64,000 nt of DNA, from the NCBI GenBank assembly GCA_963762565.1, contig CAVXLD010000003.1, positions 64,001 through 128,000 of the forward strand, read 5' to 3'. A model generated the notes under the pieces. The model was given only the letters and a program-made list of their open reading frames with translations, did not search any database and was not told where the DNA came from. This DNA comes from an uncultured Verrucomicrobiae bacterium (GTDB lineage: Bacteria > Verrucomicrobiota > Verrucomicrobiia > Chthoniobacterales > JAFAMB01). This document shows, piece after piece, positions 19,385-23,731 of the stretch (position 1 is its first letter; every line of letters begins with the position of its first letter). The position numbers and the translations under genes were made by a program.

Positions 19385-19481
19385 TCGGACCGGGTCCAGG
19401 TCAGGCGCAACGGCCTTGGTCATTATTGTTACGGAAAAAGAAACAATTGACTCTAATCTAAACCCACAAAGAAAGAACCTC

Positions 19482-20228
19482 ATGAGTAAATTAAACGGAA
19501 AAATAGCTCTTATCACCGGCGGAACCACTGGCCTCGGCTTTGCCACTGCTGAGCGCTTTCTGAGCGAAGGAGCAGACGTCGTTATCACCGGCCGTCGAAA
19601 GGCTGAGCTCGATTCCGCCGTCAAACGCCTAGGCAAGAATGTCCTCGGTGTTCAAGGTGATGTCTCTAATCTTGCGGACCTAGATCGGCTCTACGCCACC
19701 ATCCAAAAAGAGAAAGGCCACCTCGATATCGTTTTCGCGAACGCCGGGGGAGGCAGTTTCGCTCCACTGGGCGCCATCACGGAGGAACATTTCGATCAGA
19801 TCTTCAACATCAACGTCAAAGGCCTGCTCTTTACCGTTCAGAAAGCGCTTCCGCTGTTGAAGGATGGGGGATCTATCATCCTGAACGCCTCGATCGCCGC
19901 CTCAATTGGCATGGAAGCCTTCAGCGTTTACAGCGCCACGAAAGCGGCCGTTCGTTCCTTTGCCCGCACCTGGACCACCGACTTAAAGCAGCGTAAAATT
20001 AGGGTTAACGCTATCAGCCCCGGCACGGTGCCGACTGAGGGATATAGAAGCCTGGGCAACGAAGAGCAAATCACGGAATTCGCTGCTCAGCAGGCGACCC
20101 TAATCCCGCTGGGACGTGTGGGTCAACCCGATGAAATCGCTAAAGCGGTTGTTTTCTTGGCTTCAGACGACAGCAGCTTTGTTGCCGGCGCCGAGCTGGT
20201 GGTAGATGGCGGAATGATCGCGGTCTAG
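19482..20228 (+). CDS. Short-chain dehydrogenase/reductase
   Basis: TGGTTGLG, FANAG, YSATK and VDGG; ATG 19482. Confidence 0.93.
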   Translation: MSKLNGKIALITGGTTGLGFATAERFLSEGADVVITGRRKAELDSAVKRLGKNVLGVQGDVSNLADLDRLYATIQKEKGHLDIVFANAGGGSFAPLGAITEEHFDQIFNINVKGLLFTVQKALPLLKDGGSIILNASIAASIGMEAFSVYSATKAAVRSFARTWTTDLKQRKIRVNAISPGTVPTEGYRSLGNEEQITEFAAQQATLIPLGRVGQPDEIAKAVVFLASDDSSFVAGAELVVDGGMIAV

Positions 20229-20834
20229 CTGGGCAATTGTTCGACGAGTCGTTGCCTTTGTCTTGATGCCCAACGTGCCAGCTTCTCTTTCTGATTATCA
20301 TGAGCAACAAGTGCGATCCTCTTCTGGTTAAGCAACGGTCGAGGTGAACTACCATTCATGTGATTAGGGACGCTACACCAGCCCGTGACAAGCACTCCGA
20401 GTCGGTCACATGCTCACTTGCCTTTCAGGCAATCGATGAACAGTAACGAGTGCCCTTCTAGTGCAAGCGCCTTCATTTCTTCTTGGGTTGGGCGATAGTC
20501 AAAACATTCTTGACCCAGAAGGTGGTCGCCAGCGTCAGCCTGTTTGAGCAGGAATCCATCTGTGAATTCGCGCCATAGATCGCTATTTTCATTCATTTGA
20601 TCAGTTACTAGACATCAAGATTGGAAGGGCTAGCGGTTCGCTGTCTCAATTGCTGTATTTTTTGTCTTAACCCAGCTTAGCGCACTCTGGTTGTATTGAC
20701 CCTAGGCAGGCTGTTGAGAGACCGGTTCTTTTGTCCCGGAGGGACAAACCGATGGTAGCCTGGCACGAAGTGCCTGGAATTACGGCAAATTATGACCCGT
20801 CCCGTAGAGAGCCTGAGGTGGTCTGCAAGTTTTT

Positions 20835-22109
20835 TTAGGAAGAGTTTTTCACCGCGGCGAGTGGAGAATCGCGTTTAGCGAGGGCGGTGAGATAAAGTTG
20901 TGGGTCGTAGGGTTGACGGGTTTTCCAGCAACGGAAAAGAATACGGATCCATTTGTAAGCCAGAGCACGCACCGCGGCATGATGGCCTTTACCTTTGGCC
21001 TTTTGTTGGTCATAAAAAACCTTGGCCCAATCACAGAAGCCCACCGAGTGGCTGGCAAACTCATGAAAAGATTGGCGCACAAATTTCGGACAAGCCCAGC
21101 GGAAATGAACCCGAGAGCTTTTGCCGCTGCGTTCAGTGACTGGAGCGATACCAAAGAAGCTCAGTGCCTCCAGTGGGCTAGTGAAACGGTCCCGGTCGGA
21201 GCCGAAAGCGCTGAGCAAACGCGGGCCCAGCGCCTCTCCGGCTCCTGGGAGATTGTTGAATAAAGTGCTGTCGGGATGCTGAGCAAAAAGCTGGGCAATT
21301 TCTTTTTCGTACAGGACAATATAAGGGGCCATTGCTTTGAGCTGCTGGGCTAACATGAGGGTGGTCAAAGTCCCTGCGTCAATGATGGCTTTATCCCGAG
21401 TCAGAGGTTGGCCGGTCTCCACGCGTTGGATGCGGGCTTGAATCTTTTGTTCACTCCGGCACTGATGGCCATAAAAGAATCTGCGCAGTTTGTGAGTGGA
21501 GGCCTTTTTGAGCGACTCGAAGTTGGGCCAGTTGAGCAAAAAATCCGCCGCTAAGACCGTGGTCAGATCGTTATCCAATACGGCCAGAGCCAGAGGAAAA
21601 AAGGCCTTTAGTTCGCTTTTGAGCTGATTGCTCAAAGCGCTGCGAGCATCGACGGCTTGGCGCCGCTTTTCACAAAGAAGCGCTAACTTACGGGTTTGCT
21701 CGTCGTCGGGCCGCCAGGGATGCAACTGCTGGTAGTGCAGACTAACAAATTGACAAAGTAGCTGCGCATCACTGGGATCATCCTTAGCGCCGCTAGGCCG
21801 AAAGGCTTTGCGGTAGTTGTCGAGCTGTTTTGGATTAATGGGGTAGAGCTCAAAACAGTCATAACCCATTAAGAAATGAATCAGTGCTCCCCGACTCTGT
21901 TCCAGGCAGATCAGGATTTTACCTTCAGAACCAAAGCGTTCTCGCAGTTCCAAGACCCAGTCGCTCAAAGCTTCCGGCTGGCTCTCAATGCTGCGACCCT
22001 CCAGCTTGGCTTCCTCGGCGGCCGCTCGCAGAGCGATATCATGTTTTTGATCTGCCCAGTCGATTCCGACAAAAGCACTAATGGTTTTTTGATTGCTAGT
22101 GCTAGACAT
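20835..22109 (-). CDS. IS110-family DEDD recombinase/transposase, intact
   Basis: GIDWADQKHD, CLEQ and KDDPSDA (DEDD RuvC-like); GIAPVTERSGKS catalytic Ser motif; AVRALAYKWIRIL. Confidence 0.95.
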   Translation of the reverse strand: MSSTSNQKTISAFVGIDWADQKHDIALRAAAEEAKLEGRSIESQPEALSDWVLELRERFGSEGKILICLEQSRGALIHFLMGYDCFELYPINPKQLDNYRKAFRPSGAKDDPSDAQLLCQFVSLHYQQLHPWRPDDEQTRKLALLCEKRRQAVDARSALSNQLKSELKAFFPLALAVLDNDLTTVLAADFLLNWPNFESLKKASTHKLRRFFYGHQCRSEQKIQARIQRVETGQPLTRDKAIIDAGTLTTLMLAQQLKAMAPYIVLYEKEIAQLFAQHPDSTLFNNLPGAGEALGPRLLSAFGSDRDRFTSPLEALSFFGIAPVTERSGKSSRVHFRWACPKFVRQSFHEFASHSVGFCDWAKVFYDQQKAKGKGHHAAVRALAYKWIRILFRCWKTRQPYDPQLYLTALAKRDSPLAAVKNSS

Positions 22110-22139
22110 GGCTGGCTTTAAACTAAATTGATTACAACA

Positions 22140-22400
22140 AACACTGGCGACGCCCAGAGTGACGACAAACCCTTATAGTGAGACGTAAATCGCACTTGGG
22201 CGAGTTCGTCACGGCCTGAGTATTGTTCTGCACTCCAGGCTGATCAGCCACCCGAAACTCTACGGGGATTCGTTACCGAAGGGGACGGTTATTCGTGGTG
22301 GCTGACGCGCCTTGGGCGAAGTTATTCACAATCTGGGCTCGCTCACGCTCCAAAGCTCTTTTTGGGGGCTTTGGCCCCAGATCGATGAATAACTTCGGAC
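22140..22400 (-). ncRNA. Putative bridge/seek-type guide RNA of the IS110 element
   Basis: Stems CGAAGTTATTCA/TGAATAACTTCG, TCAGCCACC/GGTGGCTGA and GTGACGA/TCGTCAC; internal loops carry target- and donor-matching segments. Exact ends unknown. Confidence 0.8.
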
Positions 22401-22726
22401 CACCTATAAGGGACGGTATGATCGAGTAACATCGATGGGGCGATGTCCGAGGGCCTCCAACCGCGAACTGAGACTTGCATTAAAGATCCGTCTCACGCCT
22501 AGCAATCGCCAATCATACCGTCCCTACAGGACGGATCCGCTTGGGGGACGCCTTCCCAGGCACTTCGTGCCAGGCTACCATCGATTTGTCCCTCCGGGAC
22601 AGAAGGGCCCCGTTTTCAATCCGGCAGCTGCCGGCAGCTGCCGGACTAGACTATAACCTTTCAGCCCCGACGTGCTCCGGGGTAAACGCTTCGCGACGCC
22701 TTCTAAGTCAACTGGGCAACAACTTG

Positions 22727-23731
22727 TCAGGCTACGAGGTTGTTTGGTTCGTCTTCTAAAATAGTAGTTAGACGAGGCGCTAATGGCCGTTTGTTAAGCT
22801 GCTTCTGGCTGTGACGTGATCTGTCGCGAATGCTGCGAGCCGCGATACGAATCTGATCACGCAGCCACAGATGTGCAGGCTCATTCGTTAGGCGTGGATG
22901 CCAGCTCATGAAGTAGGGAAACGCCTTTAGCTCGCGAGGAGGTTCGATCGTCCGTAGAGTCGATATCTGTTTGATCACGTTCGCCAAGGTGCGCGGGATG
23001 GTGAGCACCAGGTCCGTCTGTGCTATTGCGAGAACGGCAGGAATATAAAACGGAATTCTGAGTGCAACCTGGCGTTTTTGACTGAGTGCTTTGAGCGGCT
23101 GGTCGATCATTGCTTGATGACCATCACCGGTCAGAACCATCGCATGCGGTAGTTCTAAATATTGTTTCAGTGTAAGTCTGCGGCCCTTTATTCGTTGGCG
23201 GGCGCCGACGAGACAGACAAAGTCGAGGTTCAAAACGATCTCGTTTTCCAGCGCAGGCGGAACGTCTTCTGCGCAAAGAATCAGATCAATCCGGCCGGCC
23301 GCAACCTCTTCATAGGTTTGCGGTCCAACTGCGCTCAGGACTAATTCAGAGTCAGGCGCGTCTCTCCGTAGTCGCTCGAGCACATTGGGCAGCAGAATCG
23401 TCGAGCCGTGGTCTGTCATTGCTATTCGAAAGCGCTCGCGACTCCGTCCAGGGATAAATTCCTGGTCGGTCACGAGAGCATTCAGGCGACGCATGATCGC
23501 TTCGGTCTCGCGCAGTACCCGTTCACCTCTCGGTGTGCGTTCATAGGTGCCATCGGAACGAACCAGCAGAGGATCGCCAAAGGTTGCCCGCAGTCTGTTC
23601 AATGCGCGGCTCATCGCGGGCTGGCTTAAGAAAGCACGTTTTGCCGCGCGGCTGATGTGCCGCTCTTCTAACAATGGTTGGATCGTGCGCAGCAGATTCA
23701 GGTCAACATCTCGCAAATGCGTGTCACGCAT
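22727..23731 (-). CDS. LysR family regulator (NodD/LeuO-like)
   Basis: DLNLL...HISRAAKRAFLSQPAMSRALNRLR...GDPLLVR; WHPRLTNEPAHLWLR. Confidence 0.92.
   Translation of the reverse strand: MRDTHLRDVDLNLLRTIQPLLEERHISRAAKRAFLSQPAMSRALNRLRATFGDPLLVRSDGTYERTPRGERVLRETEAIMRRLNALVTDQEFIPGRSRERFRIAMTDHGSTILLPNVLERLRRDAPDSELVLSAVGPQTYEEVAAGRIDLILCAEDVPPALENEIVLNLDFVCLVGARQRIKGRRLTLKQYLELPHAMVLTGDGHQAMIDQPLKALSQKRQVALRIPFYIPAVLAIAQTDLVLTIPRTLANVIKQISTLRTIEPPRELKAFPYFMSWHPRLTNEPAHLWLRDQIRIAARSIRDRSRHSQKQLNKRPLAPRLTTILEDEPNNLVA

Follow-up and report, generated by a model that had tools for sequence, protein, structure and literature searches.

A putative bridge RNA in the left end of an IS110-group element from an uncultured Verrucomicrobiae bacterium

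Does the non-coding left end of an IS110-family element encode an RNA that specifies both the insertion site and the ends of that element? The question is raised by a 1603-bp element on the minus strand of a 64,000-nucleotide stretch of DNA (the window; positions 64,001 to 128,000 of contig CAVXLD010000003.1, assembly GCA_963762565.1) from an uncultured Verrucomicrobiae bacterium. A first-pass annotation, made from the letters of the window, had read the 299-nt leader of the recombinase gene as a structured RNA whose loops spell out target and donor sequences, and had proposed that the leader be folded and that its loops be compared with insertion sites among homologues. All the motifs it described are present on the minus strand, each with the coordinates it had given. 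We found that the window copy is very probably an IS110-group element with a bridge RNA that specifies the element's own insertion site and its own ends. The observations that carry this reading are the anatomy of the element, the conservation of the RNA, the covariation of its base pairs and the covariation of its guides with the flanks.

The element, its ends and its insertion site

The element extends from 20806 to 22408 on the minus strand and is flanked by CT cores, one of which (20806-20807) is counted in its length while the second lies at 22409-22410. The left junction reads ACCGTCC/CT/TATAGG (22417-22403), with the left target flank (LT) ACCGTCC at 22411-22417, and the right junction reads GGCTCT/CT/ACGGG (20813-20801), with the right target flank (RT) ACGGG at 20801-20805. 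Between the junctions lie a 299-nt left non-coding end that starts with TATAGG at 22408, the recombinase gene, and a 27-nt right end after the stop codon, which finishes with CTCAGGCTCT at 20808. An uninterrupted paralogous site in the same genome (L002) reads TACCGTCC-CT-ATGGGACGGGTCATAAT and carries one CT. Because this repeat copy shows the site empty, the target ACCGTCC-CT-ACGGG, as reconstructed in the first-pass annotation, and the ends of the element are correct. One metagenome contig also joins 20805 to 22409 with 1603 bases skipped; its shorter side is 29 letters, making it weak evidence, and it may come from a paralogous repeat.

The insertion site is a hairpin in a roughly 90-nt repeat unit, which resembles repetitive extragenic palindromes (REP) or miniature inverted-repeat transposable elements (MITE) and is matched 62 times across the genome. 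Two inverted copies of this unit (...gtcccggagggacaaatcgatggtagcctggcacgaagtgcctgg...) form a composite of about 320 bp, which encloses the element in the window (22411-22660 and 20715-20805) and lies at 1400-1720 in L002. Insertion at a specific sequence, often a repeated extragenic palindrome, is a feature of the IS110 group, and so is the 2-bp CT core found on both sides in place of a long target duplication. An inverted-repeat search found no terminal inverted repeats between the element's own ends, and the sole end-to-end inverted repeat (I8) was the target palindrome itself.

The outer ends of the repeat, at 20732-20777 (minus strand) and 22556-22601 (plus strand), gave weak Rfam matches to Acido-Lenti-1, of 17.8 and 17.0 bits where the gathering score is 37. 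These may be chance matches, or the repeat may be related to Acido-Lenti-1 and have diverged from it. The 'cttcgtgccaggctac' repeat unit also flanks several copies of a related element in another genome (G007).

The recombinase gene (20835-22109, minus strand) is an open frame of 424 aa that matches both IS110 Pfam domains, PF01548 (DEDD_Tnp_IS110; E = 2.5e-26, residues 14-172, profile positions 1-155 of 155) and PF02371 (Transposase_20; E = 1.6e-10), the latter being the C-terminal domain with the catalytic serine. Among solved structures in the Protein Data Bank (PDB), the only matches were to the transposases of IS621 (8wt6, E = 5.9e-7) and ISCro4 (9t56, E = 6.1e-7); both are weak, and the C-terminal domain alone aligned. 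S328 aligns with the serine of the 'YESG' motif of IS621. D17, E70, D111, D114 and S328 are all present and are the majority residues in 47, 45, 47, 45 and 37 of 49 distinct family proteins, respectively; the four acidic residues were equated with D11, E60, D102 and D105 of IS621 by motif position and not by alignment. Judged from these domains and residues, the protein is an IS110-family (IS110 group) DEDD/serine recombinase.

Structure of the leader RNA

The 299-nt leader folds at -113.6 kcal/mol, compared with a mean of -86.0 kcal/mol for shuffled sequences (z = -5.56), and none of 200 shuffles was as good. A single sequence is insufficient by itself, and we take the structure as more than chance because homologues show it.

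Relatives were collected by scanning one genome per species, which gave 206 stretches, and the best 80 were kept. Among these 80, the closest has 77% amino-acid identity to the window recombinase. Their records are labelled Verrucomicrobiota, Acidobacteriota, Planctomycetota, Gemmatimonadota, Thermodesulfobacteriota and others, and the leaders of the closest ones can be aligned over the full length. A covariance model (R1) was built from 12 sequences for the part that follows the 5' stem-loop; it has 184 positions and 45 base pairs, with the structure set by hand. In the window, R1 matches 22138-22316 on the minus strand over model positions 1-184 of 184 (123 bits, E = 6.7e-32), and this match is the sole one in the window and in the whole genome. 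Full-length matches were found in 72 of the 80 related loci, on the strand of the gene and just upstream of the open reading frame (ORF), with E from 3e-52 to 1.7e-7. Five further R1 matches were weak and on the opposite strand. Eight loci had no match, and in five of them (L049, L052, L055, L059 and L079) only the C-terminal part of the protein had been matched. In the IS1111 group the guide RNA lies downstream of the gene, whereas the RNA in the window lies upstream.

Base pairing is maintained across the family. In 55 distinct sequences, 91.9% of the cells are in standard pairs, compared with 66.1% after shuffling, and 39 of the 45 base pairs show changes on both sides. None of 500 shuffles reached any of the five measures, and when the partners were slid by 1-3 columns, pairing fell to 32-44%.

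The RNA begins with a 5' stem-loop (22317-22398) that was found by folding and by the inverted-repeat search (I7). Its basal stem of 12 bp (22386-22397 with 22317-22328) is 100% complementary, in agreement with the first-pass annotation. The core of the RNA follows at 22138-22316, the extent of the R1 match, and consists of an outer helix P1 of 4 bp (22308-22311 with 22146-22149), a target-binding loop and a donor-binding loop. The target-binding loop module (22244-22305) is closed by the stem TCAGCCACC (22297-22305) with GGTGGCTGA (22244-22252) and has an inner stem, CGAA (22292-22295) with TTCG (22253-22256), and an internal hairpin TTCG-GTAA-CGAA (22269-22280). The closing stem, the hairpin and the two target guides in this loop had all been located before, and the helices are now seen to covary: in helices 2 and 3, 97.5% and 97.7% of the cells are paired, and both-side changes occur in 12 of 15 and 3 of 4 pairs. 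The donor-binding loop module (22152-22240) is closed by GCCTGGAGT (22232-22240) with ACTCTGGGC (22152-22160) and contains a conserved internal hairpin (22182-22210). Its helices 4 and 5 have 77.1% and 90.2% of the cells paired and both-side changes in 8 of 9 and 12 of 13 pairs. The leader therefore encodes a conserved structured RNA with two internal loops and a hairpin in each, as bridge RNAs have.

Two other pairings were drawn by RNAalifold and rejected. The consensus of 12 sequences joined CCTTATAG of the left end to the right donor guide, a pairing that is the guide-donor match itself. A pairing of TTGAGT with ACTCAG had no both-side change in any of its six pairs and is excluded by the covarying closing stem. 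At window position 22165, all covering contigs of three soil metagenome runs have one extra base; the position is inside an arm of a non-conserved GTGACGA/TCGTCAC stem, which is discussed below.

Guides in the window copy

In IS621, according to the available passages of two reports (Durrant et al. 2024, PMC11208160; Hiraizumi et al. 2024, PMC11208158), the 3' side of each bridge RNA loop pairs with the top strand, and each right guide is followed on its 3' side by a two-base handshake guide for the exchanged strand. The guide plan of the window copy follows that of IS621 position by position. In the target loop, the left target guide (LTG) ACCGTCCC (22282-22289) matches LT and the first core base in the same sense over 8 nt, and the right target guide (RTG) CCCGTAG (22260-22266) is the reverse complement of CT-ACGGG, a 7-nt match. 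The target-loop handshake guide AG (22258-22259) is complementary to CT, the two terminal bases of the right end (20808-20809). In the donor loop, the left donor guide (LDG) CTCAGGC (22214-22220) has the same sense as CTCAGGC at 20811-20817 in the right end, and the right donor guide (RDG) CTATAAG (22172-22178) is the reverse complement of CT-TATAG. The donor-loop handshake guide GG (22170-22171) is complementary to target positions 6-7 (CC, 22411-22412), the last bases of the left flank. Both handshake dinucleotides are fully matched. The first-pass annotation had assigned LTG, RTG and RDG correctly. It had reported the left donor guide as missing; this guide is CTCAGGC, which it had noticed and placed in a linker hairpin.

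The donor sequences read by these guides lie at the two ends of the element. The left end TATAGG (22403-22408) is the right donor half-site (RD); in a putative circle-junction promoter it is also the -10-like hexamer. Relatives have TATAGT or TATAGG there. The right end (20808-20828) consists of a -35-like TTGCAG (20823-20828), ACCAC, and the left donor half-site CTCAGGC-TCT (20808-20817).

The left end encodes a bridge RNA whose 5' stem-loop is followed by target and donor loops bracketed by the short outer helix; in each loop, a stem encloses two guides, the 5' one and the 3' one, on either side of an internal hairpin. How the element would work is suggested by analogy with IS621. In the circular form, the right end would supply TTGCAG as a -35 box, at a distance of 17 nt from the left-end hexamer TATAGG, and transcription would start at about the foot of the 5' stem-loop. 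The RNA of this copy would form a complex with the recombinase, which would cut beside the CT core via a serine intermediate. After top-strand exchange, the handshake guides AG and GG would pair with the swapped strands, and the circular element would insert into ACCGTCC-CT-ACGGG, the hairpin in the repeated extragenic element. For the window copy, transcription, complex formation and catalysis are all expected from this analogy.

Covariation of guides and flanks in the family

If the loops are guides, they should change along with the flanks of each element. Left ends were located in 63 of 73 RNA-matched loci by the reverse complement of each locus's own RDG. Right ends were located in 65 of the 73 by the motif TTGAC-N-CTCAG, independently of the guides. 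Both ends were available in 55 loci, which gave 36 distinct guide sets. The mean longest common run of LTG with its own left flank was 7.14, compared with 3.36 for the flanks of other elements, and that of the RTG region with its own right junction was 8.11, compared with 3.86 for non-cognate junctions. None of 2000 permutations reached either value. The corresponding runs in the window copy are 8 (left target) and 9 (right junction). Four guide sets scored 4-5, in each case only on one side.

The donor loop also tracks the ends. At positions 1, 2 and 3 after CTCAG, LDG agrees with the right end of its own element in 25, 21 and 17 of 27 distinct sets, where the non-cognate rates are 0.86, 0.37 and 0.35. 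RDG is near-invariant across the family, and its covariation is therefore uninformative. In 25 of 27 sets, the first handshake base of the target loop is complementary to donor position 7, where the non-cognate rate is 0.64; for the first handshake base of the donor loop and target position 7, the count is 30 of 32 and the non-cognate rate 0.43. Matches are fewer at the second handshake bases, with 11 of 27 sets for the target loop and 9 of 32 for the donor loop. A CT core stands at 57 of 59 right ends and at 61 of 63 left ends. Thus, at the family level, guides track each element's own flanks, as the loop and insertion-site comparison proposed in the first-pass annotation had anticipated, and its view of a bridge RNA in the left non-coding end, with target and donor loops and a CT core, is supported at that level. 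As in bridge RNAs, the donor-loop guides correspond to the two ends of the element itself, with LDG in a register further from the core than in IS621.

The closest multi-copy relative gives an example of other guides on the same scaffold. The G007 element is 75-76% identical in nucleotides to the window element and has 7 full copies with a consensus right end and another guide pair. In all seven, the right flank is CT-CCGGGA, as the right target guide predicts; the left flanks are more variable than the right ones. In the G007 genome, two divergent copies lie about 360 bp apart (C2:165145-166748, minus strand, and C2:167111-168714, plus strand), and a truncated copy, a right-end fragment and a full copy occur in a row at C12:97675-102263. 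These clusters may reflect repeated insertion into clustered repeats, or recombination between copies.

Among the related loci (L003-L082), the left end is 44 to 289 nt upstream of the conserved RNA core, and the length of the 5' stem-loop region is very variable. This suggests an insertion of about 120-150 nt in the 5' stem-loop region of some lineages.

Alternative explanations

Could the leader be merely a structured 5' untranslated region (UTR) that regulates the recombinase gene, its agreement with the flanks arising only because the target is palindromic and the ends are conserved? The target is indeed a palindrome able to form a hairpin (I8), and the conserved ends TATAG and CTCAG make some matches uninformative. 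We nevertheless find this explanation scarcely credible, since the targets differ widely among the 36 guide sets and the loops change along with them, at fixed positions and in the strand orientation of IS621. Moreover, the handshake covariation crosses between loops, linking the target flank to the donor loop and the donor end to the target loop, which a UTR model does not predict. The fold drawn in the first-pass annotation is another alternative, in which GTGACGA (22206-22212) and TCGTCAC (22159-22165) close the donor loop, CTCAGGC sits in a linker hairpin, there is no proper LDG and donor recognition is unlike that of IS621. The single sequence of the window copy allows both helices, and they appear in its RNAfold structure. 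The GTGACGA/TCGTCAC stem does exist in the window, but in the 55 relatives only 38.5% of its cells are paired, and the linker hairpin, with 50.9% of its cells paired, is unsupported. Jointly, the two helices are paired in 46.1% of cells, compared with 45.9% in shuffles, and 225 of 500 shuffles were as high. The competing stem 22232-22240/22152-22160 covaries in nearly all of its pairs, as given above, and the bases after CTCAG track the element's own right end. This fold is therefore very improbable, and the donor loop is instead closed by GCCTGGAGT/ACTCTGGGC, with CTCAGGC as its left guide.

Several points weigh against a bridge RNA that works in the window copy as described. The two alignments used for the RNA (A3 and A4) were fitted to a structure set by the authors, and therefore that structure is favoured. 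A scan of 20500-22800 against Rfam 15 with E up to 1 gave no bridge RNA match, the presence of this family in Rfam 15 not being established. (The scan also gave sub-threshold matches to unrelated families, namely c4-a1b1 at 20.6 bits, SNORD65 and Acido-Lenti-1 twice, which were not used.) The RDG matches hold by construction and are no test, because left ends were located with each locus's own RDG. The ninth base of LTG is C opposite the core T, so that 8 of the 9 positions used in IS621 pair. A promoter scan found no sigma-70-like promoter on the minus strand of the integrated element. In one RNA library, contigs cover parts of the ORF and both ends and leave 22042-22285 uncovered; such contigs cannot give start or strand, the library may contain DNA, and the uncovered part is uninformative. 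Three further points concern the state of this copy. Its -35 box is TTGCAG, compared with TTGACA in the closest multi-copy relatives, and TATAGG is without the usual final T. There are 5 nt (GCTCT) and not 4 between CTCAG and the core. Finally, the genome has a single copy of the element although four exact 14-nt target sites, 2 ACCGTCCCTACGGG and 2 ACCGTCCCTATGGG, are unoccupied.

State of the window copy

The right end of relatives has the layout TTGAC(A/G)-N6-CTCAG-N4-CT, which gives TTGAC(A/G)-17-TATAG(T/G) at the circle junction. The window copy keeps the spacing of 17 nt between TTGCAG and TATAGG. Its -35 box is one base short relative to the nearest relative, and the other located right ends have TTGACA or TTGACG. 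Because of this -35 and of the -10 without its final T, the junction promoter of the window copy would be weak. The 5-nt spacer is the sole case in 65 located right ends; it leaves 3 unpaired bases between the LDG duplex and the core.

These features raise the possibility that the bridge RNA architecture is in place while this copy or its lineage is poorly mobile or immobile, being a resident single copy with a weak junction promoter and a left donor half-site at an unfavourable distance from the core. In G007, by contrast, the closest relative has seven full copies and a consensus right end. Such a state is possible, though less likely than not. The ORF is open, the catalytic residues are present, and all RNA helices and guides are intact. 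Furthermore, soil metagenome contigs from three runs of other studies carry variants of the element that are 90-99% alike. These follow the window for 12-15 nt left of the core, to 22422-22425, and then diverge, and one variant contig diverges on the right, from 20797, 10 nt right of the core. The variant contigs that cover 20796-20830 have no insertion or deletion there. They point to other insertion contexts with the same target word; being contigs at 90% likeness, they are only moderate evidence for such contexts and weak evidence for mobility. Because their right end is without an indel and their flanks differ, copies that have moved seem to share this unusual right end. Among the metagenome and RNA-library contigs, none contained a circle junction. 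The first-pass annotation had called the element intact and reprogrammable. The open frame, the catalytic residues, the intact RNA and the different guides that relatives carry on the same scaffold agree in part with that description; the right end has two oddities, in the -35 box and in the spacer.

A more tentative idea, which we regard as rather unlikely, is that the bridge RNAs of the element and of its 70-odd relatives, from Verrucomicrobiota, Acidobacteriota, Planctomycetota and Desulfobacterota-type genomes, are a structural subclass of their own, in which the lineage of the window copy has gained one base in the gap to the core and kept its mobility. Such a subclass may be marked by the outer helix that clamps the loops, by an LDG that reads the donor 1-3 bases from the core, and by right guides of 7 nt plus a 2-nt handshake, which may read 9 contiguous bases of each integrated junction. 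If this is true, the distance from the donor duplex to the cleavage site would be flexible. The subclass may already be listed in the IS110 orthologue tables published with PMC11208160. Whatever the rank of the family, the reading of the window copy as an IS110-group element with a bridge RNA is the one we prefer.

Genomic surroundings and other copies

The element is present as a single copy in the window genome. Among 42 other genomes of the family, no other copy with more than 76% nucleotide identity over the full length was found; a left-end fragment of 117 nt in one of them (G034) is 89% alike. The window genome (G000) has 7 matches to the IS110 DEDD domain. Four of these have identical scores (30.6 bits) and lie in 370-aa frames, at C1:471817-472236, C3:319565-319984, C4:142755-143174 and C9:31301-31720, which points to a second, multi-copy IS110-type element in the same genome. 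The genome scan with R1 gave no match for this second element.

The element lies between two frames that we judged from their sequences alone. The frame at 22727-23731 (minus strand, 334 aa) presumably encodes a LysR-type regulator, and the frame at 19416-20228 (plus strand, 270 aa) presumably encodes a short-chain dehydrogenase.

Implications and comparison with known systems

RNA-guided recombination by IS110 elements was established in 2024, and our finding leaves that picture unchanged. Its first contribution is a natural bridge RNA with full annotation, from a soil bacterium and distant from IS621. Orthologue mining and the design of longer right guides could draw on the working covariance model and on about 36 natural guide sets that share one scaffold. 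Two natural variations, the offset of the donor guide from the core and the donor spacer that is longer by one base, are relevant to engineering rules. The target and donor guides could be recovered by reading the raw sequence, while the fold of a single sequence misplaced the donor loop.

The IS1111 group with its seekRNA (Siddiquee et al. 2024, PMC11187229) has the same type of recombinase and RNA-guided choice of target. According to the available part of that report, it differs in having subterminal inverted repeats, which are absent in the IS110 type; the element here has no terminal repeats. The ISCro4 transposase (PDB 9t56) has the same Pfam architecture and is distant, with a match as weak as that to IS621 (E = 6.1e-7). 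ISPpu10 of Pseudomonas putida, as described in the available part of its report (bioRxiv 10.64898/2026.03.19.712850), is also an IS110 element with a bridge RNA, and all its insertions are in copies of one conserved intergenic repeat that forms a stem-loop. The hairpin around ACCGTCC-CT-ACGGGACGG is a putative structural determinant in our case.

The closest parallel is IS621 of Escherichia coli, as far as the available passages of its two reports (PMC11208160, PMC11208158) describe it. Both elements have a DEDD and serine recombinase, an RNA in the left end on the strand of the gene, and a CT core. In both, the RNA has a 5' stem-loop and then target and donor loops, each with a 5' guide in the sense of the top strand, a hairpin and a complementary 3' guide. 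Both have 2-nt handshake guides directly 3' of the right guides and insert into repeated extragenic palindromes. In IS621 the promoter is split, the -35 lying in the right end and the -10 in the left end, and is rebuilt at the circle junction; the window copy has a putative promoter of this layout. The protein is a distant one, matched in the C-terminal domain only (E = 5.9e-7), and has 424 aa here compared with a chain of 328 residues in IS621. The RNA region here is about 250 nt (22398 to 22146), compared with 177 nt, and a short outer helix surrounds both loops in the window element, a difference from IS621 as those passages describe it. RTG is 7 nt here, whereas four RTG nucleotides (G77-G80) pair with the target in IS621, and LTG here pairs through the first core base only. 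LDG here spans CTCAG and 2-4 further bases, with 1-3 bases between the duplex and CT left unpaired, whereas the LDG of IS621 pairs up to the first core base. Judged by sequence, these differences appear to be a matter of degree, and every feature that can be compared at this level is like that of IS621.

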